Shown piece after piece: positions 3,734 to 23,152 of a stretch of DNA of 32,000 nucleotides (the first letter of the stretch is position 1; each line of letters begins with the position of its first letter). The stretch comes from an uncultured Candidatus Saccharibacteria bacterium (GTDB lineage Bacteria > Patescibacteriota > UBA1384 > XYA2-FULL-43-10 > 1-14-0-10-43-13), in contig CAZIYE010000002.1 of the NCBI GenBank assembly GCA_964543385.1, positions 30,001 to 62,000 of the forward strand, in the 5' to 3' direction. The notes beneath the pieces are model-generated. The model had not been told where the DNA came from. It was given only the letters and a program-made list of their open reading frames with translations, and did no database searches. Position numbers and translations under genes: made by a program.

Positions 3734-3769
3734 TTGACTCTTGACAAGATGTAAAGCCTGCTTTACATT
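3734..3769 (+). promoter_or_regulatory. sigma70-like promoter with a palindromic operator overlapping the spacer and -10
   Basis: TTGACA at 3741-3746, then a 17-nt spacer, then TACATT at 3764-3769. The inverted repeat TGTAAAGC-ct-GCTTTACA lies at 3750-3767. The ATG at 3776 is about 7 nt after the -10 and has no SD, so the transcript may be leaderless. Confidence 0.45.
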
Positions 3770-3775
3770 TTAGAT

Positions 3776-4525
3776 ATGGAAGAAAAAGATTTACCAATCG
3801 AAAACAGGCTTAAGGACTTGCGAAAAGAAAAGCACCTTAGTCAAGAGGAATTAGCCGATGCAATCGGTATTTCTCGTCAGTCAATAATCTCACTTGAACA
3901 AGGCAGATCAATGCCTTCTGTTCCGTTGGCGATTTCCCTATGTCGGTATTTTGATGCCGCATTTGAAGAACTTTTCGACTTCGAGCGCGAAGTTGATAGA
4001 GAAATCAACAATGCAATTCACAATGGTAGTATTAATATAAAAGTAATTAATGATCCAGAAGTCGGATCGAGAAAGGACAATGCTATGGTAGAATTAGAGC
4101 CATGGAGACCTTTTAGAGAAACAGTATCCTTGAGAGACGCAATGGATCGGCTTTTAGAGGATAGTTTTATTACTCCTGCCAAAATGGGGGGTATGCCTCG
4201 AATTGATGTCAAAGATAAGAAAGACTCAATTGTAGTTAAAGCCGAGTTGCCAGGAATCAAGGAAGAGGACATCAATGTCGAAATCCTCGATAATGTCATG
4301 ACAATCTCAGGTGAGAAAAAAGAGGAAAAAGAAGAGAAAGAAGAGGACAAAGGCTATTATTACAAAGAAAGCCATACTGGAAAATTCTCTCGAAGTTTCA
4401 CCCTGCCATCTGAAGTAATGACCGAAAGGGCCGTTGCTGATATGAAAAATGGTATTCTCACAATCACTGTTCCAAAAATAGAGCCAAAGAAAGCTCAAAA
4501 GATAAGCATCGCCCCAAAGAGATAA
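3776..4525 (+). CDS. fusion protein: N-terminal XRE-family helix-turn-helix domain + C-terminal Hsp20/alpha-crystallin domain
   Basis: HTH: LRKEKHLSQEELADAIGISRQSIISLEQGRSMPSVPLAISLCRYF. ACD: PRIDVKDKKDSIVVKAELPGIKEEDINVEILDNVMTISGEKK...GKFSRSFTLPSEV...ADMKNGILTITVPK. One uninterrupted 249-aa ORF. Confidence 0.85.
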   Translation: MEEKDLPIENRLKDLRKEKHLSQEELADAIGISRQSIISLEQGRSMPSVPLAISLCRYFDAAFEELFDFEREVDREINNAIHNGSINIKVINDPEVGSRKDNAMVELEPWRPFRETVSLRDAMDRLLEDSFITPAKMGGMPRIDVKDKKDSIVVKAELPGIKEEDINVEILDNVMTISGEKKEEKEEKEEDKGYYYKESHTGKFSRSFTLPSEVMTERAVADMKNGILTITVPKIEPKKAQKISIAPKR

Positions 4526-4542
4526 AGGCCATCTAAATAATA

Positions 4543-4571
4543 AATAACCCCGAAATTTAATCGGGGTTATT
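4543..4571. terminator. bidirectional intrinsic terminator between convergent genes
   Basis: AATAACCCCGA-aatttaa-TCGGGGTTATT: an 11-bp perfect stem flanked by A-rich and T-rich runs on both sides. It sits between the hsp20-fusion stop and the HD-gene stop. Confidence 0.75.
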
Positions 4572-4596
4572 TATTATTAAGGACGGACCTATTATT

Positions 4597-5223
4597 TTAT
4601 GAAAGAAAATCTTTGCCACTCCAATCATCCATAAATTCTCTTAGATATTTTGCGATAATCTCATGTCTCCTATCTGCAATTATTCTAGCAGTTTTAGTAT
4701 TCATCATATCTCTTAAGAGCAAAAGTTTTTCATGAAAGTGGTTTATACTTGATCCATTTTCTTCCTGAGATTCTTCAGGGTCGAAAATTGGTCTATTTAT
4801 CTGTGCGCCGTAAGCAAATGTTCTGGCAATACCAATAGCACCTAGTGCATCGAGTCGATCTGCATCTTGGACGATTTGTGCCTCTAGTGTCTCTGGTTTT
4901 ATAGCATGCCTTTTATCCTTGAAGCTCACTGTTAAAATTACATCAATAATTCTATCAATCTTTTCTTGGCCAATCCCTAGAGTGTCCAACCATTTCCGCG
5001 TCTTGGATCTCTCTTTCTCATCTTCTACACTTGAGAACTTGTGATCATCAATATCATGAAGCAGAGCAGCCATCTCTACAATAAAAGCATCGGCTTTTTC
5101 CTTTTCGCAAATATATTGTGCAGCTTTCCAAACCCTCTGAGTATGCCACCAATCATGACCAGAAATGTCATCCTTGAAAAAATCTTTTACAAAATCAATT
5201 GTTTTCTCTATTTCTTTATTCAT
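4597..5223 (-). CDS. HD-domain metal-dependent phosphohydrolase (YpgQ-like)
   Basis: H...HD signature: WWHTQRV ... AALLHDIDDHK ... QDADRLDALGAIGIAR. 208 aa. Confidence 0.8.
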   Translation of the reverse strand: MNKEIEKTIDFVKDFFKDDISGHDWWHTQRVWKAAQYICEKEKADAFIVEMAALLHDIDDHKFSSVEDEKERSKTRKWLDTLGIGQEKIDRIIDVILTVSFKDKRHAIKPETLEAQIVQDADRLDALGAIGIARTFAYGAQINRPIFDPEESQEENGSSINHFHEKLLLLRDMMNTKTARIIADRRHEIIAKYLREFMDDWSGKDFLS

Positions 5224-5571: not shown

Positions 5572-6012
5572 ATGAAGATCAAAGCAAAAAAATTAAATAA
5601 AGATGCCATTGTTCCTGTCCATTTATTACATGGTGACGCAGGGTTGGACTTACATTCCGTAATAGATGTAACTTTAAACTCAGGAGAGAGGCTTGCAGTG
5701 CCTACAGGGCTAGCATTTGAGCTGCCGGAGGGCTATGTATCATTGATCTGGGATAAGAGCGGATTAGCTCTGCGAAATGGTATAAAAACGATGGGCGGGG
5801 TGATAGAATATACTTATCGGGGTGAATATAAAATAATATTGCTAAACACGACCAATACGCCGTTTCATATTAAAAAGGGTGATAAAATCGCCCAGATGCT
5901 GGTGCAGCCAATAATGTCAGTTGATGTTGAAGAAGTCGAAGAATTAAGCGAGACAGAGCGCGGACTACATGGATTTGGCTCTGCTGATGAGAAGCTAAAG
6001 AATGGAAAATAA
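5572..6012 (+). CDS. dut: trimeric dUTPase-fold protein (dUTP pyrophosphatase)
   Basis: Motifs GDAGLDL, DKSGLA, GGVIEYTYRGE, GDKIAQML and the C-terminal ERGLHGFGSA. In motif III the usually invariant Asp is Glu (GVIE instead of GVID). Confidence 0.85.
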   Translation: MKIKAKKLNKDAIVPVHLLHGDAGLDLHSVIDVTLNSGERLAVPTGLAFELPEGYVSLIWDKSGLALRNGIKTMGGVIEYTYRGEYKIILLNTTNTPFHIKKGDKIAQMLVQPIMSVDVEEVEELSETERGLHGFGSADEKLKNGK

Positions 6013-6685
6013 AACCGGAAAATTCATTGTCATAGATGGTTCTGACGGGTCAGGTAAAAAGACCCAGTCTGATTTATTGATTGAAAGCTTGAAAAAAGCA
6101 GGGCATGAGACCGCTTATTATGATTTTCCTGATTATGATTCATTCTTTGGTAAGATGGTAGGCCGATACCTCAATGGAGAATTCGGCGAAGCAGATCAGG
6201 TCAGCCCCTATCTTGGCTCACTTTTATATGCAGGGGATCGCTGGCAAGCAAGTAAACAAATAGAAAAAGATCTTTCAGAAGGCAAAATTGTCATTTCAAA
6301 CCGATACACGCAGTCAAATATGGGCCATCAGGCTGCAAAAATAGACAATATTGATGAAAAAGAAAAGTATTTGAAATGGCTTGAAGAGCTAGAGTTTAAT
6401 ATTTATAAAATACCAAAACCAGACTTAGTTTTATTTTTACATGTCCCAGTAGAGATAAGTCAGAATCTGTTTGTCGGAAAGGGAAAGCGCAAATATACAA
6501 AGGCAGTCAAAGATATCCACGAAGGGAATGTCGATTTTATGAAGAGGTCGGTCAATGAATATCTCCGTTTAACAGAAAAATATCCAGAGTGGCGAAGAAT
6601 TGATTGTACAGAGGCAGAAACCCTACTGTCAAAGGAAGAGATTGCTGATAGAATTTATTCGATGATAACGAAAGAAGTTTTATGA
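6002..6685 (+). CDS. tmk: thymidylate kinase
   Basis: FIVIDGSDGSGKKTQ P-loop, a DRY-type motif present as NRY, and a lid region. Overlaps the dut end by 11 nt. TGA stop. Confidence 0.85.
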   Translation: MENKTGKFIVIDGSDGSGKKTQSDLLIESLKKAGHETAYYDFPDYDSFFGKMVGRYLNGEFGEADQVSPYLGSLLYAGDRWQASKQIEKDLSEGKIVISNRYTQSNMGHQAAKIDNIDEKEKYLKWLEELEFNIYKIPKPDLVLFLHVPVEISQNLFVGKGKRKYTKAVKDIHEGNVDFMKRSVNEYLRLTEKYPEWRRIDCTEAETLLSKEEIADRIYSMITKEVL

Positions 6686-6830: not shown

Positions 6831-8072
6831 ATGAATTTGAAAGATCAAGACAAAGAAATATTTGAAGTAATCAATTGTGAAAAAGAGCGCCAAGTCGAAG
6901 GTTTAGAGATGATTGCTTCTGAAAATTATGTCTCAGAAGCTGTCCTCGAAGCAACTGGTTCAATCCTCACTAACAAGTATGCTGAGGGCTATCCATACTC
7001 TAGATATTATGGTGGCTGTGAGTGCGTTGACAAAGGAGAGTCATTAGCAATTGAGCGATTAAAGAAATTATTTGGCTGCAAATTTGCCAATGTTCAGCCA
7101 CACTGTGGATCAAGTGCAAATATGGCAGCTTATGCTGCTATCCTTGCGCCAGGTGATAAATTGCTCGGACAAAGTTTAGATGCTGGAGGACATTTGACTC
7201 ATGGAGCCAAAGTTTCTTTTTCTGGGAAATGGTTTGAGTCATACAGCTATGGACTTGATTCAGAAACTGGACAGTTAAATTATGAAGAGATCAGAAAAAT
7301 TGCACTTGAAGTAAGGCCAAAAGTTATTATGTGTGGGTACTCAGCATATCCAAGAAAAATAGATTTCAAGAAATTTAGAGAGATTGCTGACGAAGTAGAC
7401 GCATATTTGATTGCAGATATAGCCCACATAGCCGGATTAGTTGCTACTGGCTATCATGATTCTCCTATTGGTATCGCTGATATAGTTACATCAACAACTC
7501 ATAAAACTCTAAGAGGTCCACGTTCCGGCATCATTATGACAAATAATGAAGAATTGGCAAAGAAGATTGACAAAGCGGTTTTCCCGATGCTTCAGGGTGG
7601 TCCACTCGAGCATGTTATTGCCGCTAAGGCAGTTGCATTTGGCGAAGCGCTAAAACCTGAATTTAAGATATATATAAGCAATGTTTTAGATAATATGCAG
7701 ACTTTTGCCAAGACTTTAATGTCTTTTGATTTTGACTTGGTCACTGGCGGGACAGAGAATCATCTAATATTAGTCGATCTTAGAAGCAAGAGCATAACCG
7801 GTAAGGAATTCGAGTATGCTCTACACGAAGCAGGGATTACAGTAAATAAAAATGCTATTCCCAATGACCCAAATCCGCCAAAAGTTACTTCCGGCATCAG
7901 AGTTGGGACAGCCGCATTAACAACCCGCGGAATGGGTGTTAAAGAAATGCAGCGGATTGCTGAAATGTTTAATATCGTTGCTGAAAATATCAGCGATGAG
8001 CAAAAACTTGCCGAAATCAAACAAGAGATTAAAGAAATGACCGAAAATTTCCCAGTACCGGGCATTAAATAA
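6831..8072 (+). CDS. glyA: serine hydroxymethyltransferase
   Basis: 413 aa with GLEMIASENYVS, YAEGYPYSRYYGGC and TSTTHKTLRGPRSG (PLP-lysine motif). SD aaaggag lies 6 nt upstream. Confidence 0.96.
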   Translation: MNLKDQDKEIFEVINCEKERQVEGLEMIASENYVSEAVLEATGSILTNKYAEGYPYSRYYGGCECVDKGESLAIERLKKLFGCKFANVQPHCGSSANMAAYAAILAPGDKLLGQSLDAGGHLTHGAKVSFSGKWFESYSYGLDSETGQLNYEEIRKIALEVRPKVIMCGYSAYPRKIDFKKFREIADEVDAYLIADIAHIAGLVATGYHDSPIGIADIVTSTTHKTLRGPRSGIIMTNNEELAKKIDKAVFPMLQGGPLEHVIAAKAVAFGEALKPEFKIYISNVLDNMQTFAKTLMSFDFDLVTGGTENHLILVDLRSKSITGKEFEYALHEAGITVNKNAIPNDPNPPKVTSGIRVGTAALTTRGMGVKEMQRIAEMFNIVAENISDEQKLAEIKQEIKEMTENFPVPGIK

Positions 8073-8081
8073 GGATTAGCG

Positions 8082-8390
8082 ATGGATTTTTCAGAATTAC
8101 AAGAAAAAATTATTGCCAATGCAGAGCGATATTCAAAAAAACATGATATTTTAATTAATGATGATTATGCAATTCATAAATTATATGAAGAAGTTGGCGA
8201 GTTTTCTCAAGCCTGGCTTATTCACAATCGCCAATGCAGAGAATCGAAATATGTTGAAAAAGAGATGTCCAAGAAGATGATCTCGCACGAATTGGCTGAT
8301 ATAATCGGAATTGCGGTAGTGATAGCAAATTTGCAGAAAATAAACTTAGAAAAAGCAATTGACCAAAAATGGATTAATAGAGAAAAATAA
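8082..8390 (+). CDS. MazG-like all-alpha nucleoside triphosphate pyrophosphohydrolase (single domain, DCTPP1/YpjD-like)
   Basis: 102 aa with LYEEVGEF (EExxE-type metal motif) and ISHELADIIGIAVVIA (second acidic helix). Confidence 0.7.
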   Translation: MDFSELQEKIIANAERYSKKHDILINDDYAIHKLYEEVGEFSQAWLIHNRQCRESKYVEKEMSKKMISHELADIIGIAVVIANLQKINLEKAIDQKWINREK

Positions 8391-8391
8391 T

Positions 8392-8946
8392 ATGATATTA
8401 GGAGTAACTGGAACAATTGGCGCTGGCAAAGATTTGATTGCAAGATATCTGGAAAGTAAAGATTTTCAGCATATTTCTACTGCCGATATCCTTAGAGAAG
8501 AAGTCTCTCAAAAAGGCTTATCCTTAGAACGTGAATCATTACGCACTTTTTCAAACGATTTAAAGAAAGAAAAAGGTGGCGATTATCTAGCAAGGGAGGC
8601 TGTTGCTAGAATGAAAAGTGATAATATTATAATATCCGCAATAAGAGCAGTAGAAGAAGTCGATTACCTAAAAAAACTAGATAATTTTTATCTTATTTTT
8701 ATTGATGCTCCTGTTGAATTACGATATGAAAGAATCAGAAAAAGATCACGGATAGGCGAGAAGGAAATAGCCTTTGAAGAGTTTAAAAGAAAAGAAGACT
8801 TAGAAATGTTTGGCCAAAGCTCACAAAGACTAGATTATTGCAGGGAGAAGGCCGATTTCATAATTAGTAATACTAGCTCCATAGATCAATTAAATATAGA
8901 AATTGACAATCTGCTAATCAAGATTAGGGAAAGTGGAAATAAATGA
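8392..8946 (+). CDS. P-loop nucleoside/nucleotide kinase (CoaE / dNMP-kinase-like), substrate unknown
   Basis: ILGVTGTIGAGKD P-loop at the N-terminus and a lid-like RYERIRKRSR. I prefer ATG 8392, directly after the mazG-like stop, over the track's TTG at 8359. Confidence 0.65.
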   Translation: MILGVTGTIGAGKDLIARYLESKDFQHISTADILREEVSQKGLSLERESLRTFSNDLKKEKGGDYLAREAVARMKSDNIIISAIRAVEEVDYLKKLDNFYLIFIDAPVELRYERIRKRSRIGEKEIAFEEFKRKEDLEMFGQSSQRLDYCREKADFIISNTSSIDQLNIEIDNLLIKIRESGNK

Positions 8947-9773
8947 CACAGTTTGATCATGTATACCAAGATGCAATAGCCAGAGTTCTGAATGAAGGAG
9001 TGGAAGATTTTAATGTTCGTACTGGCATGAAAGTAAAGGCAGTGCCGGGACTTACTTTTCAGTGTGATTTTGGTTTTCCGATATTAACATTACGCAAAAT
9101 CCCCATAAAACTATTTATAGCTGAGATGGTTTGGTTTCTTTCTGGTAGCAAGGATCCAGATGATTTCTTAAGTAAATATACGAAAATATGGGATGATTTC
9201 CGAGAAGAAGATGGTACTATTGCTGCGGCTTATGGTCATCGCTGGAGACACCATTTCGGGCGTGATCAGATAAAAGACTTAATTTCCCTTCTCCAGAATG
9301 AGCCATCTTCGCGCCACGGTGTGGTCGTAACATGGGATCCGGCAGACGACGGTCTTGGCAGCGGCACGAAAAAGAAAAACGTACCTTGTCCATACACATT
9401 TACCGTAAATATTATCGGTGATAGACTTCATTTGCATTCAATAGTTCGCTCAAATGATATGATGCTTGGCTGCCCTCACGATACAGCCGGCTTCTCATTG
9501 CTCCAATATTTATTAGCAGCAAAACTTGGCGTAAGACCAGGCGTTTATACACATTCAGTAAGCAATGCTCATATATATGAAAATCATTATGACCAGGCAT
9601 GGGAGATCGTGAATAGAGAAAATTCTCACCCCCCAATCGTTTTTGAGCCCAGGCCAGATTATCTAGATAGAGCAATGGCAGGGGACGAAAGCGTAATAAA
9701 TGAAATTTACGAAACATTAACAGAACAATACAAACCTAGATCAGCAGTTAAAAAAATGAAGATAGCATTATGA
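8943..9773 (+). CDS. thymidylate synthase (ThyA) superfamily enzyme with Asp at the Asn177-equivalent position; predicted pyrimidine C5 (hydroxy)methylase acting on a cytosine nucleotide
   Basis: ThyA-family motifs: VRTG, FIAEMVWFLSG, AYGHRWR, DQIKDLISLLQNEPSSRH, catalytic NVPCPY, VRSNDMMLGCPHDTAGF, SNAHIYENH. The start overlaps the kinase stop by 4 nt. Confidence 0.85.
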   Translation: MTQFDHVYQDAIARVLNEGVEDFNVRTGMKVKAVPGLTFQCDFGFPILTLRKIPIKLFIAEMVWFLSGSKDPDDFLSKYTKIWDDFREEDGTIAAAYGHRWRHHFGRDQIKDLISLLQNEPSSRHGVVVTWDPADDGLGSGTKKKNVPCPYTFTVNIIGDRLHLHSIVRSNDMMLGCPHDTAGFSLLQYLLAAKLGVRPGVYTHSVSNAHIYENHYDQAWEIVNRENSHPPIVFEPRPDYLDRAMAGDESVINEIYETLTEQYKPRSAVKKMKIAL

Positions 9774-10297
9774 AAACAATAATAATCATGGCTCAGTCAC
9801 TTGATGGTGTGATAGCTTATGACGCTGACCACGCCGCGAACTGGACATCGAAAGAAGATAAGCAGTTTTTTATATCTGAAACCAAGAAAGCCGGAGTAAT
9901 AATTTTTGGCAGAAATACCTATAAAACTTTTGGCGACAAACCTTTGCAAGGCAGACTAAACCTTGTGATGACCCTGGATGAAAGTGAAAAGCAATTTGAA
10001 AAGCCAGGTCTTGTTGAATATGCGGTTAAAAAAGAGCCATCGGAAATATTAAAAATGTTAAAAAAGAGAGGCTTTAAAAAAGTTTTTGTCGGCGGAGGAA
10101 GTATGATTAATTCACTTTTCCTTGATAAGGGGTTAATCGATGAACTTTGGATAACCATTGAGCCAAAAATTTTTGGAAAAGGATTAAAAATACTCACTGA
10201 TCAAAAAAGAGATATTAATCTTGTTTTGAAAACAGTTAAAAAAGCAAACCAATCAGTTTTATTAAAGTACGGAGTGAATTATGGGAATTCTAACTAG
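9770..10297 (+). CDS. dihydrofolate-reductase-fold reductase (RibD C-terminal domain family)
   Basis: IIIMAQSLDGVIA..., IIFGRNTYKTFG, VFVGGGSMINSLFLDKGLIDELWITIEPKIFGKG. ATGA overlap with the thyA-like stop. Confidence 0.7.
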   Translation: MKTIIIMAQSLDGVIAYDADHAANWTSKEDKQFFISETKKAGVIIFGRNTYKTFGDKPLQGRLNLVMTLDESEKQFEKPGLVEYAVKKEPSEILKMLKKRGFKKVFVGGGSMINSLFLDKGLIDELWITIEPKIFGKGLKILTDQKRDINLVLKTVKKANQSVLLKYGVNYGNSN

Positions 10298-10997
10298 AAA
10301 AGAAATTTTGACTGCTATTGCTGATGGGGAGCTTAGTTTTGAGCCAGGCTTAGACCAATTTCAGCTACAACCAGCTGCAATCGACGTTCGGGTTGGTATG
10401 AACTTTTTCATACCAAAAATTTGGTCATTTGGAGAAGAGGGAAGAACGGGCTTGAATACTGATCATCTTGATAACGAAAAAAAGAATGAGTTTTTAGATA
10501 GTCTACATTTAAAACATGGGCAGACCTTTGAATTGCTCCCAGGGGAATTTATCTTAATTTCGACTCTAGAAAAGATTTCTATGAAGTCAGGCAGACTTGT
10601 CTCTATCCTTTATCCTAGGAGTTCCACGACCAGAAGAGGTATATCTATTGAATCTGGCGTTATAGATCCTCATTACGAAGGCTCTCTTATGATCCCTGTT
10701 TTTAATATGACTAGAACGCAAAAAATCAAGATATATCCCGGTGAAAGAATTGCCCAGCTTGTTTTTTCTACTACCGAGAGTGTTCTTTCTAAGGAAGAGT
10801 CCTTGAATCATGGACTTGCAAAACCTAAATATCAGGGAGTCCAAGGCTATCAGTTGGATTATAAGTTCGATCCGCATGATGAAATCAATTTAGTCAAAAA
10901 TGGCCAATTGGATAAATTAAAAAAGAATCACCTAATTTCATTAGACGAAAGGGTTGAAAGTGGCGACGAAAAAAATCAACTACCCTTATCTGCCTAA
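10281..10997 (+). CDS. dCTP deaminase/dUTPase-superfamily protein (Dcd-like N-terminus, dUTPase-like catalytic motifs, no deaminase Glu)
   Basis: ILTRKEILTAIADGELSFEP...AAIDVRVG (Dcd-like), YPRSSTTRRGISI, GVIDPHYEGSLMIPVFN, PGERIAQLVF. SD ggagtg lies upstream of the ATG. About 45 aa of C-terminal extension. Confidence 0.75.
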   Translation: MGILTRKEILTAIADGELSFEPGLDQFQLQPAAIDVRVGMNFFIPKIWSFGEEGRTGLNTDHLDNEKKNEFLDSLHLKHGQTFELLPGEFILISTLEKISMKSGRLVSILYPRSSTTRRGISIESGVIDPHYEGSLMIPVFNMTRTQKIKIYPGERIAQLVFSTTESVLSKEESLNHGLAKPKYQGVQGYQLDYKFDPHDEINLVKNGQLDKLKKNHLISLDERVESGDEKNQLPLSA

Positions 10998-11841
10998 AGG
11001 TAGAGAAATCAAGTTTGTCGGTTCTGAAAATGAATATATATTAGCGGCTAAAGAGGCTGCTATGAAGGCTGGCTGCAGAAAACAGCCAACAGGAGCAGTC
11101 TTGGTCAAAGACGGCAAAATAATAATGACGGCTACCAATGCAAGTACTACGGTCAGCGTCTGCCCCAGAGTATTAAAAGGAAGCAAGACTGGAACCGACT
11201 ATCATTTTTGCAAGGAAGTTTGTAATCAAGACGGGCACTCTGAATATAGCGCAGTACAAAAATGTCTAGAGAAGGGGATAGACATAAAAGACGCTGATAT
11301 TTATCTCTGGGGACATTGGTGGTGCTGCAAACCATGTTGGGACAAGATGATCGAAGGAGAAATCAAAAATGTTTATCTGGAGAAAAATGCAGATGAAAAA
11401 TTCATGTTTTCCGCAACTATCGGCAAAATCTATATTTCAGGTGCTCTCACCATACAGCCAAAGGGTAAAAATTTAAGAAAATCATATGAAAATTTAGCAG
11501 CAGTTTGCTCAAACTTTTGTAGCAATGTTTATGTGCCACATCTTAATAGCACGGATCCGATCAAGGATCCCAATGAAGTGCCGTCTATTGTTTGGAAAAC
11601 TGATCACAGGGAAGTAGCTTCTTCTGATATCGTAGTCGCATATGTTGGCGCACCATCTCTAGGGACTGGCGCAGAGCTTGAGATCGCCAGAATGGCGGCT
11701 TCAGATATAGTAGTTTGGTGGTATAAAGGTGAAATGGTTAGTAGAATGTGTCTTGGAAATCCAAATGTTAAATATAAGTTGGAAGTTATCAATGACCAAG
11801 ATTTAGCCCATCAGCTTAAGTTAGTCCTAAGGAATTATTAG
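10954..11841 (+). CDS. fusion: dCMP/cytidine-deaminase-fold zinc domain + DNPH1/Rcl (nucleoside 2-deoxyribosyltransferase-fold) domain
   Basis: Deaminase signature: DGHSEYSAV (HxE) and CCKPCWDKM (PCxxC). C-terminal half: IYISGAL ... SSDIVVAYVGAPSLGTGAELEIARMA. Start uncertain: TTG 10954 or GTG 10960; the latter has aaggg 6 nt upstream. Confidence 0.75.
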   Translation: MKVATKKINYPYLPKGREIKFVGSENEYILAAKEAAMKAGCRKQPTGAVLVKDGKIIMTATNASTTVSVCPRVLKGSKTGTDYHFCKEVCNQDGHSEYSAVQKCLEKGIDIKDADIYLWGHWWCCKPCWDKMIEGEIKNVYLEKNADEKFMFSATIGKIYISGALTIQPKGKNLRKSYENLAAVCSNFCSNVYVPHLNSTDPIKDPNEVPSIVWKTDHREVASSDIVVAYVGAPSLGTGAELEIARMAASDIVVWWYKGEMVSRMCLGNPNVKYKLEVINDQDLAHQLKLVLRNY

Positions 11842-21829: not shown

Positions 21830-23152
21830 TTAGCTAAATGTCAATTCTGTACGATAGCCCCTTTTAAAATCTTCGTAGGTCATTTCATTCTTGCCTTCAG
21901 GCTTGACTCGATCTAGCGCATAGGTCAAATCCTTCTCAAAATGACCGGCAATCAATTGCACTTTTTTGTCTTTTACAACTGCGAATGCCTTTGGCCAGTC
22001 GCTAAATGCTCTAATTTTTCTGTCTACTATCTCTTTGGGTGTATCTGCGTCGACAAATCCATCTTCTTTTTTGAAAAGTCGATTGTATGTTGCCTTGCTA
22101 TCATCTTGGGGTGTTGGTTCTAGATCCTTGGTCAGATAATAAGGGATAGAATTAACCAGAAGCGAAGCACCAATTTCTGCTAAGTAAGGTTTTAAAATAG
22201 TTGTTGTCTCTGTGCCACGAAGCTGGACACTAGCCTGTGAAATGATGTCACCAGCATCCATTTTTTCGCCAGTCAATATTAGAGATACTCCGGTAACCTT
22301 ATCACCGTCTAAAATTGTTTGTTGAATCGGTGATGGTCCTCTGTGCTGAGGCAAAAGAGACGGATGGATATTTATTATGCCAAATTCTGGAATATCAATT
22401 ATATCTTTACTAATGATCTGTCCAAAATCGGCCATTATCCCAAGCTTCGGTTTCAGTGCTTTAATTTTTTCAACAATGTCAGGAGATTTAATATTGTCGG
22501 TTTTGATTATTGGTAGATTATATCTGTTTGCAATCTCCTCAATTGGATTTTTCTTTTTATTATGTTTTCTGGAAACAGCCTGGGAATTGCCGGTTATGAC
22601 TGCCCTGATCTTATATTGGGGATCAATAGCTAAAATTTCTAGAGCATCGATGCCGAGAGTTCCAGTACCTATAAATATAACGTCTATCTCTCGGATATGG
22701 TCAATTAGTAGAGTTGAATTTAAATGGTCAATTTCATGTTGAAGTACTCTCGAGAATAGGCCAGTTGCCTCGATAGTCAGATTATTTCCTAATCGATCTT
22801 TGCCAGTCACAGTAACGTCGCTAGGTCTCTTAACAATTATCTCTAAGCCAGGAAAAGACAGACACCCCTCCACCATATTTCTAGATGATTTCGATCTTTT
22901 AGTTATTTTTGGGTTGCAAATAACTGTCAGGGGAAAGGATTTAAATCTTGAGTCCTCTTCGGCCTTGTATTCGCAAACTATTACTTTTTTTGAACTTTTG
23001 ACTTGAGGAGCGGCAAGGCCAACGCCATTAGCAGCTCTCATGGTATCAATCATATCATCTATGAAGGCTTGAAATTCCATACCAAAATCGCTGACCTCTT
23101 CGGTCTTGGCTCTAAGAATTGGATTGCTAGTTTTTATTATTTCTAATTTCAT
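21830..23152 (-). CDS. fused peptide deformylase + methionyl-tRNA formyltransferase (single 440-aa ORF)
   Basis: Def motifs: GVGLAAPQV, EGCLSFPG, QHEIDHL (aa 1-~155). About 12 aa later the Fmt part begins: VIFIGTGTLG, INIHPSLLPQHRGPSPIQ, KMDAGDII, and a C-terminal tRNA-binding domain. No stop or frameshift between the two parts. Confidence 0.9.
   Translation of the reverse strand: MKLEIIKTSNPILRAKTEEVSDFGMEFQAFIDDMIDTMRAANGVGLAAPQVKSSKKVIVCEYKAEEDSRFKSFPLTVICNPKITKRSKSSRNMVEGCLSFPGLEIIVKRPSDVTVTGKDRLGNNLTIEATGLFSRVLQHEIDHLNSTLLIDHIREIDVIFIGTGTLGIDALEILAIDPQYKIRAVITGNSQAVSRKHNKKKNPIEEIANRYNLPIIKTDNIKSPDIVEKIKALKPKLGIMADFGQIISKDIIDIPEFGIINIHPSLLPQHRGPSPIQQTILDGDKVTGVSLILTGEKMDAGDIISQASVQLRGTETTTILKPYLAEIGASLLVNSIPYYLTKDLEPTPQDDSKATYNRLFKKEDGFVDADTPKEIVDRKIRAFSDWPKAFAVVKDKKVQLIAGHFEKDLTYALDRVKPEGKNEMTYEDFKRGYRTELTFS

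Follow-up and report, generated by a model that had tools for sequence, protein, structure and literature searches.

The fusion gene described here lies in a 32,000-nucleotide stretch of Candidatus Saccharibacteria DNA (hereafter, the window), within a row of same-strand genes headed by a dUTPase and a thymidylate kinase (Tmk). The window has a GC content of 0.33-0.41 and belongs to a reduced CPR genome. Two genes separate the thymidylate synthase (TS) homologue from the fusion gene, and the row is composed as follows.

5572-6012, + strand: canonical dUTPase, head of the row
6002-6685, + strand: Tmk, also at the head of the row
6831-8072, + strand: serine hydroxymethyltransferase (SHMT; methylene-THF supply), profile match
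8082-8390, + strand: MazG/PRA-PH-like small pyrophosphohydrolase, weak matches
8359-8946, + strand: P-loop (d)NMP-kinase-like protein, profile matches
8943-9773, + strand: TS homologue, predicted dCMP methylase (Cys149, Pro150, Asp180)
9770-10297, + strand: dihydrofolate reductase (DHFR; RibD_C/DHFR_1), profile match
10281-10997, + strand: DCD-like protein of 238 aa, predicted dNTP pyrophosphatase
10954-11841, + strand: whole fusion ORF, 295 codons from TTG 10954, stop at 11839-11841

The fusion ORF is a single continuous frame in which a frameshift is absent; an alternative start at GTG 10960 gives the version in the databases (P0001, 293 aa). The first 44 nt of the ORF also belong, in a different frame, to the upstream DCD-like gene; loci L003, L006, L010 and L012 keep this overlap, and the DCD-like gene is translationally coupled to the fusion. 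The motifs reported in the initial annotation are present in the translation, namely GHSE (H95/E97), CKPCWDKM (C125/C128), IYISGAL (Y160) and DIVVAYVGAPSLGTGAELEIARMA (S235, E241). Its placement of two domains in one ORF is borne out by a PF00383 match above the cut-off and by profile, hhalign and structure matches of the C-terminal domain. About 40 full-length homologues, every one in Patescibacteria, share this layout across independent assemblies, which makes the architecture neither a sequencing artefact nor a product of chance; together with the continuous frame, this rules out a frameshift or two-gene artefact. The domain assignment, a dCMP-type deaminase and a DNPH1/Rcl-like N-glycosidase domain in one polypeptide, is solid and stands on firmer ground than when first proposed. 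Both domains come from known enzyme families, while their fusion is uncharacterised, and our search of the literature found nothing specific on the fusion or on a CPR dCMP-methylase pathway. Database entries label the fusion 'deaminase', 'deoxycytidylate deaminase' or 'hypothetical protein', and one JGI entry reads dNMP N-hydrolase. The parts of the protein are located as follows.

11029-11379, + strand: zinc deaminase domain, dCMP/ComEB-like (residues 26-142), from PF00383, PDB and Foldseek matches
11161-11223, + strand: insertion with C70, C86 and C90 (VCPR...C...C), from the homologue alignment and alignment to the S. mutans enzyme
11236-11244, + strand: H95-S-E97 (HxE), catalytic zinc ligand and proton-shuttle Glu, invariant in 40 homologues
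11326-11337, + strand: C125-K-P-C128 (PCxxC-type zinc ligands) in a GHWWCCxxCW motif, invariant in 40 homologues
11380-11421, + strand: short inter-domain linker (residues 143-156), pLDDT ~80-86 in the model
11422-11838, + strand: NDT-superfamily, DNPH1-like domain (residues ~157-295), from the family profile, hhalign and Foldseek

By family, the N-terminal half is a zinc deaminase of the dCMP type, with substrates predicted from that membership. PF00383 matches this half at 42.2 bits (curated cut-off 25), the sole PDB sequence match is the S. mutans dCMP deaminase (E 3e-5) and Foldseek retrieves the T4 Cd and S. mutans dCMP deaminases, and also RibD. The dCMP deaminases (ComEB of Streptococcus/Bacillus, T4 Cd and human DCTD) match it best in sequence and structure, and the domain shares with them the PF00383 family, the HxE and PCxxC zinc motifs and an extra Cys/His insertion ahead of the HxE helix. 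Within this insertion C70 and C86 are invariant and C90 is shared by 90% or more of the 40 homologues; by analogy with the ComEB/T4-type enzymes, it may form a second, structural metal site. Unlike those enzymes, the fusion deaminase represents a distinct CPR subfamily (GHWWCCxPCW) that carries a C-terminal DNPH1-like domain, and its score against TIGR02571, the ComEB equivalog, is far under the cut-off (33 versus 219). Among phages the N-terminal domain finds only weak matches, 7 records in all, which are deaminase ORFs from Xanthomonas phages and a single Stenotrophomonas phage, and no full-length match to the fusion was found in 50,697 phage records or in BFVD. No sign of a phage origin was found, and the window also encodes UvrB, PriA, TrmD, ThrRS and L25.

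The C-terminal domain falls in a subfamily of the NDT superfamily that is distinct and widespread and whose nearest solved relative, as judged from profiles and a structural model, is DNPH1. Taken alone, the C-terminal half scores 20.8 (E 4.5e-4) to 22.9 bits against PF05014, below the gathering score of 28.8. The same Pfam family is matched by 19 of 20 members of the C-domain family (best E 1.6e-9), and some relatives exceed the gathering score (e.g. P0138, 45.6 bits), which argues for membership of the superfamily rather than of the family itself. A profile of the C-domain family retrieves DNPH1 chains from the PDB at E 2e-8, the CMP N-glycosidase 4jen at E 8.5e-6, MilB at E 7e-3 and also the NDT structure 7m5h, and hhalign aligns the domain to human DNPH1 with 96.7% probability (E 4e-10). 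The AlphaFold (AF2) model of the fusion (pLDDT 88, pTM 0.74) has an NDT-type flavodoxin-like fold in this region and matches about 40 DNPH1 chains in Foldseek (prob 1.0, TM(target) 0.72-0.84) and the MilB crystal structure (TM ~0.7). The agreement of these approaches rules out a chance resemblance; the expected match to NDT/DNPH1 profiles is thus found for DNPH1, while PF05014 alone stays sub-threshold. The Lactobacillus-type nucleoside 2-deoxyribosyltransferases (NDTs; PF05014) share the superfamily and its covalent Glu chemistry, but they use nucleosides rather than nucleotides and transfer rather than hydrolyse; the C-domain, in contrast, has the DNPH1-type phosphate-binding serines.

Family conservation was counted over 149 representatives with pairwise identities of no more than 50%. 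The residues concerned are listed with their counterparts in DNPH1.

11431-11433, + strand: Y160, equivalent to Y24 of the catalytic triad (hhalign; Y in 133/149)
11536-11541, + strand: P195-H196, equivalent to E55-H56 (Pro 145/149, His 141/149)
11551-11559, + strand: T200-D201-P202, family-specific motif (D 133/149, P 140/149)
11602-11604, + strand: D217, equivalent to D80, the general acid (D 126/149, N 16/149)
11656-11676, + strand: S235-L-G-T-G-A-E241, phosphate-binding Ser (S98) and nucleophile Glu (E104) (S235 139/149, E241 148/149)
11740-11745, + strand: S263-R264, cross-dimer phosphate ligand (S128') and conserved Arg (S263 138/149, Arg 137/149)

The C-domain has the fold of DNPH1/Rcl (2'-deoxynucleoside 5'-phosphate N-hydrolase 1, or 5-hydroxymethyl-dUMP N-hydrolase; PDB 8OS9, 8RPS, 4P5E) and equivalents of its PSLGVGxE nucleophile motif, Tyr/Asp/Glu triad, His56 and both phosphate-binding serines, and the counts point to strong purifying selection on these catalytic and phosphate-binding residues. 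With Tyr160, Asp217, Glu241, His196, Ser235 and Ser263 kept, the domain is expected to take a (deoxy)nucleoside 5'-monophosphate as its ligand and to cleave the N-glycosidic bond via a glycosyl-Glu intermediate. The initial annotation's term 'DNPH1/Rcl-like' holds to this extent, but the domain is not a DNPH1 orthologue. It represents a sister subfamily, and is bacterial, fused to a deaminase and only ~20% identical to DNPH1; a PH-x(2-3)-[TS]DP motif occupies the position of the non-conserved DNPH1 shielding loop, and Arg30 is replaced by the Leu/Thr of the SGALT motif. In DNPH1, E55 is the proposed water activator and the E55-H56 pair serves water activation and leaving-group stabilisation (PMC10603095), and it is this Glu that has become the near-invariant Pro195. 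From its position and conservation, the TDP motif is a candidate for a substitute acid/base or for a base-recognition residue.

Since Glu55 and Arg30 are both missing, hydrolysis may be slow or replaced by transfer. The C-domain would then be a nucleotide 2-deoxyribosyl (5-phosphate) transferase in which a free base resolves the glycosyl-Glu241, so that a dNMP would swap its uracil or cytosine, for instance, for thymine or another base, a direct form of base salvage at the nucleotide level. The founding members of the superfamily are transferases, PF05014 and 7m5h are matched and a proline stands in for E55, the proposed water activator (PMC10603095), as disfavoured hydrolysis would lead one to expect. 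We nevertheless consider this quite improbable: by profile and structure, true NDTs rank behind the NMP hydrolases (DNPH1, the BcmB-like CMP N-glycosidase and MilB), the conserved Asp201 of the TDP motif could replace E55, and the operon has no genes for supply of an acceptor base. Loss of the E55 and R30 equivalents, together with Asn or Gly at D217 in several fused homologues, could also denote a non-catalytic module for nucleotide sensing or oligomerisation. Classical dCMP deaminases are allosteric, and such a module would replace their dCTP/dTTP site; DNPH1-type domains dimerise and could organise a deaminase oligomer. This is highly improbable given a nucleophile Glu in 148/149 representatives, with Tyr, His and both Ser at about 90% or more, among highly divergent fused and stand-alone members, as a pure binding module needs no nucleophile. 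In addition, stand-alone proteins of 140-160 aa, which have nothing to regulate in cis, make up two thirds of the C-domain family, and this predominance argues that its members are autonomous enzymes.

The 'Rosetta-stone' idea that accompanied the first description of the locus is reinforced by the recurrence of fusion, since the same NDT-like family has been joined independently to several partners. Besides the deaminase-NDT order (about 40 proteins), a reversed NDT-deaminase order with the same GHWWxCxPCW deaminase type occurs in P0129, a CDA-type cytidine deaminase is the partner in P0192, and NDT-DCD-like fusions are found in P0188, P0216 and P0220. Two triple fusions draw in the neighbouring genes of the operon, DHFR-deaminase-NDT in P0217 and DCD-like-deaminase-NDT in P0261. 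The fusion protein is best read as a genuine bifunctional pyrimidine deoxynucleotide enzyme (dNMP deaminase/N-glycosidase), with predicted substrates and a predicted physiological role.

TS, DHFR and a long DCD-like protein lacking the catalytic Glu lie beside the fusion in all 12 distinct fusion loci examined, and the TS of each has Asp at the position of E. coli N177. In the window, Cys149, Pro150 and Asp180 of the TS homologue align with C146, H147 and N177, which confirms the nearby Asp-type TS noted earlier. TS becomes a dCMP methylase on N177D substitution (Liu & Santi 1992 and Hardy & Nalivaika 1992, both cited in PMC8670742). In phages, 5mdCMP is the product of Asp-type TSs accompanied by deaminases in cis, and these deaminases yield dT nucleotides (bioRxiv 10.1101/2024.12.05.627091). 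As the TS always occurs with DHFR, retains a TS-like C-terminal tail and resembles phage enzymes that form 5-methyl-dCMP, it is more likely a dCMP methylase than a hydroxymethylase of the MilA/BcmA/T4 type, contrary to the analogy first drawn. The neighbouring TS is, by this comparison, probably a dCMP methylase whose annotation is likely wrong. The DCD-like protein has a dUTPase-like motif 3 and Pro139 in place of the deaminase catalytic Glu (E129 of M. tuberculosis DCD-DUT), and it scores above the NCBIfam dCTP-deaminase cut-off despite this absence. A true dCTP deaminase feeding dUMP is thereby ruled out for the upstream gene, which would supply no dUTP or dUMP by deamination; its dCTP deaminase label, like that of the TS, is flagged as a probable mis-annotation.

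MilB, BcmB and BlsM (CMP and hydroxymethyl-CMP N-glycosidases, with the TS-like partners MilA/BcmA) are NDT-fold enzymes matched by profile and structure, and their genomic partner is a cytosine-specific TS homologue, as is predicted for the Asp-type TS beside the fusion. By this parallel with the mildiomycin/bacimethrin clusters, the TS homologue would hydroxymethylate (d)CMP and the fusion would free 5-hydroxymethyl-cytosine or -uracil as a metabolite or cofactor precursor; the 4jen and MilB profile matches fit, as does a stand-alone NDT gene of Anaerolineae that overlaps the start of an Asp-type TS gene. Those enzymes, however, belong to antibiotic biosynthesis, use ribonucleotide substrates and work with hydroxymethylases that have no need of DHFR, whereas the partner TS of the fusion is DHFR-coupled in a DNA-precursor context. 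The constant presence of DHFR, even as a fusion partner, implies dihydrofolate production and hence reductive methylation. Tailoring, methyltransferase or ThiD-like genes are not adjacent, the organism has a minimal genome and the rest of the operon (dUTPase, Tmk, SHMT, kinase) is housekeeping DNA-precursor metabolism. This is the least probable of the readings, and the once-suggested release of a modified base, if meant for secondary metabolism, is unlikely in such an operon. We know of no deaminase fusion of MilB/BcmB.

Neither partner is exclusive to the other. Two CPR loci (L007, L008) pair an Asp-type TS with a stand-alone deaminase, and no NDT gene was found near it there; conversely, in ten Patescibacteria loci a stand-alone NDT accompanies an Asn-type TS of 330-346 aa. 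The occurrence of stand-alone NDT with canonical TS suits a catabolic or salvage role with no special link to 5-methyl-dCMP, in which surplus cytosine deoxynucleotides from foreign DNA would be degraded from dCMP via dUMP to uracil, deoxyribose-5-phosphate and NH3, and the DCD-like pyrophosphatase would extend degradation to dCTP. Uracil would pass to RNA salvage and the deoxyribose phosphate to central carbon metabolism, rebalancing the pools of a low-GC (36-40%) organism, in keeping with the reduced genome and base composition of the window. Fusion joins the NDT-like domain to a Zn deaminase, a CDA-type deaminase and DCD-like/dUTPase-like proteins, all of which yield dUMP or dCMP, and P0261 would form a linear pipeline from dCTP to base. 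Tight coupling of the fusion to TS(Asp) and DHFR in 12/12 loci and the DHFR-deaminase-NDT protein would be unexpected for a purely catabolic enzyme, and deoC/upp-type genes were not seen in the window. We judge this role unlikely.

The best overall explanation, held with a confidence just short of an even chance, is a bifunctional deaminase/N-glycosidase that would serve a dCMP to 5-methyl-dCMP to dTMP route and dispose of off-pathway dUMP or 5-hydroxymethyl-dUMP. From its context, the operon would make thymidylate without dUMP. The Glu-less DCD-like pyrophosphatase and/or the MazG-like protein would convert dCTP to dCMP, the Asp-type TS, with SHMT and DHFR, would methylate dCMP to 5-methyl-dCMP, and the deaminase domain of the fusion would yield dTMP for Tmk. 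Most speculatively, deamination of unmethylated dCMP and the action of dUTPase would generate dUMP, a dead end because an Asp-type TS is unable to consume it, and capture of water by the TS would give a 5-hydroxymethyl species; the DNPH1-like domain would hydrolyse such uracil-type by-products to free base and deoxyribose 5-phosphate, sparing dTMP, as built-in pool sanitation. The channelled deamination plus base removal and the sanitation envisaged at the outset are plausible in this light. The human hmdC pathway, in which DCTD acts first and DNPH1 downstream of it, follows the same two-step logic that the fusion mirrors.

The independent fusions, the 12-locus operon, the conserved residues and the overlap of the fusion with the DCD-like gene count in favour of this explanation, and DNPH1 itself hydrolyses 5hmdUMP, and dUMP slowly (PMC10603095, PMC10483697). 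Phage modules of dCMP methylase and 5mC-selective deaminase (Xp12-like phages; mSCD-B5) offer a further likeness: a TS homologue with Asp at N177 is encoded in cis with a PF00383 deaminase, a PRA-PH/MazG-like gene often goes with them, and dT nucleotides are proposed to arise from 5-methyl-dC nucleotides (bioRxiv 10.1101/2024.12.05.627091). Those modules come from viruses whose genomes carry 5mC in place of all C, and an NDT/DNPH1-like domain is not reported in them (bioRxiv 10.1101/2024.12.05.627091); the fusion operon, in contrast, is cellular and sits amid DHFR, SHMT, Tmk and ribosomal/repair genes. Several observations weigh against this explanation. Asn takes the place of D217 in about 11% of family members, including several fused homologues, and the D80N form of human DNPH1 is inactive enough for substrate to be trapped (according to the title of PDB 8RPS). 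Glu55 is a near-invariant Pro and Arg30 is missing, the NDT-like family also occurs beside Asn-type TS, where destruction of dUMP would compete with dTMP synthesis, and L007 and L008 have no NDT gene near their Asp-type TS. The sole characterised phage 5mC-selective deaminase of the same protein family, moreover, acts on triphosphates, not monophosphates (bioRxiv 10.1101/2024.12.05.627091).

A broader proposal is that Patescibacteria and some Anaerolineae use a dUMP-independent thymidylate route in which the DNPH1-like domain of the fusion would serve as a glycosidase dedicated to proofreading, destroying dUMP and 5hmdUMP, dead-end or mutagenic by-products, where they are made; in this full form it is rather doubtful. 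To our knowledge, a dUMP-independent route has so far been proposed only for 5mC phages. If true, such a pathway would be seen in cells for the first time, and a bacterial DNPH1-like enzyme would gain its first physiological role. The locus, with its Asp-type TS, obligatory DHFR and Glu-less 'dCTP deaminase', would provide a concrete model of dUMP-independent thymidylate synthesis with pool sanitation in ultra-small bacteria living on scavenged nucleotides. The repeated independent fusions mark a large bacterial branch of DNPH1-like proteins, so far unstudied (848 cluster representatives at E<1e-10), that is firmly tied to thymidylate metabolism, and its members offer bacterial models for DNPH1, a current cancer-drug target.

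The fusion gene (10954-11841, +) is an uninterrupted frame of 295 codons when counted from TTG, and a GTG at 10960, two codons further on, is the start of an identical database protein of 293 aa, P0001; an AAAGGG Shine-Dalgarno-like element lies upstream of both candidate starts. The motifs quoted in the initial annotation are all found in the translation, namely GHSE (H95, E97) and CKPCWDKM (C125, C128), together with IYISGAL (Y160) and DIVVAYVGAPSLGTGAELEIARMA (S235, E241). Approximately 40 full-length homologues of 290-320 aa, 34-79% identical and drawn from independent NCBI, JGI, ENA and Logan assemblies, share the same two-domain layout. A frameshift artefact is ruled out because the frame is unbroken and these independent homologues have the same architecture. 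Their named sources are all Patescibacteria/CPR (Moranbacteria, Uhrbacteria, Portnoybacteria and 'Patescibacteria group'). Databases label them 'deaminase', 'deoxycytidylate deaminase' or 'hypothetical protein', apart from one JGI entry called '2'-deoxynucleoside 5'-phosphate N-hydrolase'. A literature search found no paper on a deaminase-nucleoside-2-deoxyribosyltransferase (NDT) fusion, nor on a cellular dCMP-methylase route to dTMP. The fusion is absent from the phage records and viral structure models searched. Phage-database matches are weak (28-34% identity), cover the deaminase domain only and lie in ORFs from phages of Xanthomonas translucens and from one of Stenotrophomonas, which carry the label deaminase in Langgrundblatt1/2 alone and are hypothetical elsewhere; the sole phage neighbourhood inspected (L050, Xanthomonas phage Langgrundblatt2, 43751-44068) has no adjacent thymidylate synthase (TS). 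The fusion is real, conserved and uncharacterised, a new architecture and subfamily of known kinds of enzyme.

The N-terminal deaminase proposed initially is confirmed by Pfam: residues 26-142 score 42.2 bits (cut-off 25) with PF00383, the zinc-binding region of CMP/dCMP deaminases, and by this profile the fusion is a member of that family. The sole sequence match of this domain in the PDB is the dCMP deaminase of Streptococcus mutans (E 3e-5), and in a Foldseek search of the PDB the modelled domain superposes on the T4 and S. mutans dCMP deaminases. Residues H95, E97, C125 and C128 are invariant among the ~40 homologues, the two cysteines lying within a family-specific GHWWCCxPCW motif. Ahead of the HxE helix lies an insertion in which C70, C86 and C90 are conserved; ComEB/T4-type dCMP deaminases have extra metal ligands at the matching site, and the insertion may likewise form a second metal site.

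The C-terminal half had been assigned to the NDT/DNPH1 group. Taken alone it scores below threshold against PF05014 (20.8 bits, threshold 28.8, E 4.5e-4), and the domain was therefore tested at the family level, where the assignment holds. PF05014 is matched by 19 of 20 diverse C-domains (best E 1.6e-9), and a profile of these 20 searched against the PDB ranks human and rat DNPH1 first (E 2e-8), then the CMP N-glycosidase 4jen (8.5e-6), the nucleoside 2-deoxyribosyltransferase 7m5h (3e-4) and MilB (7e-3). Alignment to human DNPH1 with hhalign gives 96.7% probability (E 4e-10, 110 columns). An AlphaFold2 model of the fusion, built from a 40-sequence alignment (mean pLDDT 88, pTM 0.74), was compared with the PDB using Foldseek, its C-domain matching ~40 DNPH1 chains at an on-target TM of 0.72-0.84 and MilB at 0.70-0.73. 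Judged by these profiles, the C-domain belongs to the NDT superfamily. An exhaustive HMM search of 1.84 billion cluster representatives with the C-domain profile returned 2449 proteins with E <=1e-3, of which 848 reach <=1e-10 and 92 reach <=1e-30; among the best 149 representatives, 101 are stand-alone proteins of <=200 aa.

The hhalign alignment relates the active site to DNPH1, whose residue roles are taken from DNPH1-hmdUMP structures (PMC10603095).

Active-site residues of the fusion, DNPH1 equivalents, roles and conservation over 149 representatives (pairwise <=50% identical)
Y160, DNPH1 Y24: catalytic triad; 133/149
H196, DNPH1 H56: contacts base O2, leaving group; 141/149
V213, DNPH1 I76: packs on base; 131 V and 15 I of 149
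D217, DNPH1 D80: general acid; 126 D and 16 N of 149
S235, DNPH1 S98: phosphate ligand; 139/149
E241, DNPH1 E104: nucleophile, the catalytic Glu in question in the initial annotation; 148/149
S263, DNPH1 S128': phosphate ligand from partner subunit; 138/149

Arg264, adjoining Ser263, is conserved in 137/149, and the family has a motif of its own, PH-x(2-3)-[TS]-D-P (D201 133/149, P202 140/149). Unlike DNPH1, the fusion has neither Glu55, the proposed activator of the hydrolytic water (PMC10603095), whose position is a near-invariant Pro (145/149), nor Arg30, which has no equivalent in the family by hhalign. From this alignment we conclude that the C-domain is an NDT-superfamily member predicted to bind nucleoside 5'-monophosphates and to use covalent Glu catalysis, its glycosyl-enzyme resolved either by water or by a base, and that it forms a sister subfamily of DNPH1 and is not its orthologue; it should be filed as a new DNPH1-like subfamily because it lacks Glu55 and Arg30 and misses the PF05014 threshold. 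The missing Glu55 equivalent also favours an alternative in which the domain is a dNMP base-exchange transferase, a reading considered quite improbable. That it is a non-catalytic regulatory module is very improbable, the nucleophile being all but invariant and many family members standing alone.

The fusion is the last gene of a same-strand row in the window.

Genes of the row preceding the fusion
5572-6012, +: dUTPase
6002-6685, +: thymidylate kinase
6831-8072, +: SHMT
8082-8390, +: small MazG/PRA-PH-like protein, weak Pfam matches
8359-8946, +: P-loop (d)NMP-kinase-like protein
8943-9773, +: TS homologue
9770-10297, +: DHFR
10281-10997, +: dCTP-deaminase-like (DCD-like) protein, 3' end overlapping the fusion gene by 44 nt

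This is probably an unconventional thymidylate operon. On modified-cytosine contigs, PRA-PH is one of the domains found most frequently near deaminases (bioRxiv 10.1101/2024.12.05.627091). The kinase-like protein hits NCBIfam NF041025, the 'anti-phage dCTP deaminase' model, over the N-terminal kinase portion of that model (E 2.5e-9), and also hits PRK08356. The remainder of the window is housekeeping (ThrRS, Nudix, L25, UvrB, TrmD, PriA, Der, Lgt, LspA), and the window is CPR chromosome, not phage. It also encodes a 440-aa Def-Fmt fusion of peptide deformylase and methionyl-tRNA formyltransferase (21830-23152, -; Pep_deformylase plus Formyl_trans_N/C) and a protein joining an N-terminal HTH_3 to an HSP20/alpha-crystallin domain (3776-4525, +), an architecture repeated at L003 1155-1934.

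The TS homologue has Asp180 at the position of E. coli N177 and Pro150 at that of H147. Exchange of Asn177 for Asp switches TS from dUMP to dCMP, creating a dCMP methylase (Liu & Santi 1992 and Hardy & Nalivaika 1992, as cited in PMC8670742), and the window TS is accordingly predicted, from its residues, to be a dCMP methylase. Of seven phage Asp-type TSs that have a PF00383 deaminase in cis, five make 5mdCMP, and the deaminases are proposed to turn 5-methyl-dC nucleotides into a supply of dT nucleotides; the only phage 5mC deaminase characterised prefers triphosphates (bioRxiv 10.1101/2024.12.05.627091). The window TS retains a TS-like hydrophobic C-terminus (...KMKIAL), which, together with the constant presence of DHFR at the fusion loci, once fused to deaminase-NDT, points to reductive methylation yielding dihydrofolate and not to hydroxymethylation. 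A base-releasing pathway like that of MilA/MilB is highly improbable, with both DHFR and the housekeeping context standing against it.

The DCD-like protein scores 101.5 against the NCBIfam dCTP-deaminase TIGR02274 (cut-off 92.8) and has a ~50-aa C-terminal extension. Aligned to M. tuberculosis DCD-DUT (2qxx), it retains Ser102, Arg106 and Asp119, and its Pro139 falls at the catalytic Glu129. None of the TS(Asp)-linked DCD-like homologues has this Glu; the bona fide DCDs from loci L015 and L018 do have it. A further motif, GVIDPHYEGSLMIPVFN, we take to resemble motif 3 of the E. coli dUTPase. Because of the missing Glu and this motif, the annotation of the protein as a deaminase is probably wrong; it is more probably a dNTP pyrophosphatase, likely to convert dCTP to dCMP by analogy with T4 gp56.

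Contigs of fused and stand-alone relatives were annotated using the window proteins as queries. In 12/12 distinct fusion loci with a complete TS (the window, L001, L003, L004, L005, L006, L010, L011, L012, L016, L045 and L053) the fusion is linked to a TS of 276-282 aa, DHFR and a 'long' DCD-like protein. All 12 TSs have the Asp and Pro pair and retain, in E. coli numbering, E58, W80, Y94, C146, R166, D169, H207 and Y209, with R21 kept except in L005. L006 also encodes a second deaminase fused to dUTPase (3768-4823, 351 aa), and L001 (10518-11693) and L016 (4310-5512) encode thymidylate kinase-dUTPase fusions of 391-400 aa. The same Asp and Pro pair occurs beside stand-alone deaminases in CPR loci L007 and L008, near which there is no NDT gene; Asp-type TS plus Zn-deaminase is therefore the general module, to which some lineages have added the NDT fusion.

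The pair is also found in seven Anaerolineae genomes, where the Asp-type TS begins within the end of a stand-alone NDT gene and is followed by a second, divergent TS-like gene and a long DCD-like one; neither Zn-deaminase nor DHFR was detected in these clusters. Gene order here (L029-L032, L035, L036 and L046; e.g. L031 3200-10100) is RNR-like (784 aa), SDR, DCD-like (192 aa), NDT-like (142 aa), Asp-type TS (279 aa), second TS-like (342 aa, PF00303 E 2.5e-10) and long Glu-less DCD-like. DHFR adjoins TS in most Patescibacteria loci examined. Ten further Patescibacteria loci have their stand-alone NDT between DHFR and kinase/Tmk, adjoining a canonical Asn-type TS of 330-346 aa, with no Zn-deaminase nearby. 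In these loci (L013, L014, L015, L017-L019, L021-L024) the TS has a large insertion, E. coli R126/R127 are aligned with K/S, R21 is not conserved, and there is a short Glu-less DCD-like gene (LTFGxCN).

The initial 'Rosetta-stone' idea is borne out more widely, the NDT-like domain having been joined independently to deaminases in both orders, to DCD-like proteins and to DHFR.

Domain architectures among the relatives
Deaminase-NDT, the fusion's own layout: P0019, P0036, P0127, P0138, P0141, P0159
NDT-deaminase, reversed order, same GHWWxCxPCW deaminase type: P0129
NDT plus CDA-type (PCGxCR) cytidine deaminase: P0192
NDT-DCD-like: P0188, P0216, P0220
DHFR-deaminase-NDT: P0217, overlapping by 4 nt the Asp-type TS directly before it
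DCD-like-deaminase-NDT: P0261, single-polypeptide counterpart of the overlapping window genes 10281-10997 and 10954-11841
NDT-HTH: P0183, P0195, P0259

These independent fusions indicate that the NDT-like enzyme partners cytosine-nucleotide deaminases, DCD-like pyrophosphatases and the TS/DHFR cycle.

Both domains of the fusion are intact catalytic domains, with conserved residues for nucleotide-monophosphate binding and covalent catalysis, and linkage to the Asp-type TS, DHFR and DCD-like genes is obligatory. The proposed pathway would run from dCTP through dCMP and 5mdCMP to dTMP, the last step being performed by the fusion's deaminase domain. As the Asp-type TS would be unable to use dUMP, dUMP arising from deamination of unmethylated dCMP, or from the operon's dUTPase, would be a dead end that could re-enter DNA as uracil. 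In TS-type enzymes, moreover, water can capture the exocyclic methylene and so give rise to hydroxymethyl by-products. A fused glycosidase specific for uracil-type dNMPs except dTMP could clear such by-products at their point of origin, releasing uracil or 5hmU and deoxyribose 5-phosphate, by a logic likened to that of human DCTD and DNPH1; the fusion would place in one chain what is there a pair of proteins.

The domain-level statements, on their own, are held with high confidence. The overall reading, dTMP made via 5mdCMP with fused DNPH1-like clearance of uracil-type dNMPs, is tentative and falls a little short of even probability, the clearance role being its most speculative part. It is weakened by the NDT-like gene beside a canonical Asn-type TS, the Asp217 to Asn variants in the C-domain family, the lack of a nearby NDT gene in L007/L008 and the triphosphate preference of the characterised phage 5mC deaminase. 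Plain dCMP/dCTP catabolism and pool rebalancing, as the role of the same genes, is unlikely. With respect to the favoured 5mdCMP route, the occurrence of Asp-type TS across CPR and Anaerolineae loci suggests a dUMP-independent route to dTMP in cellular organisms.
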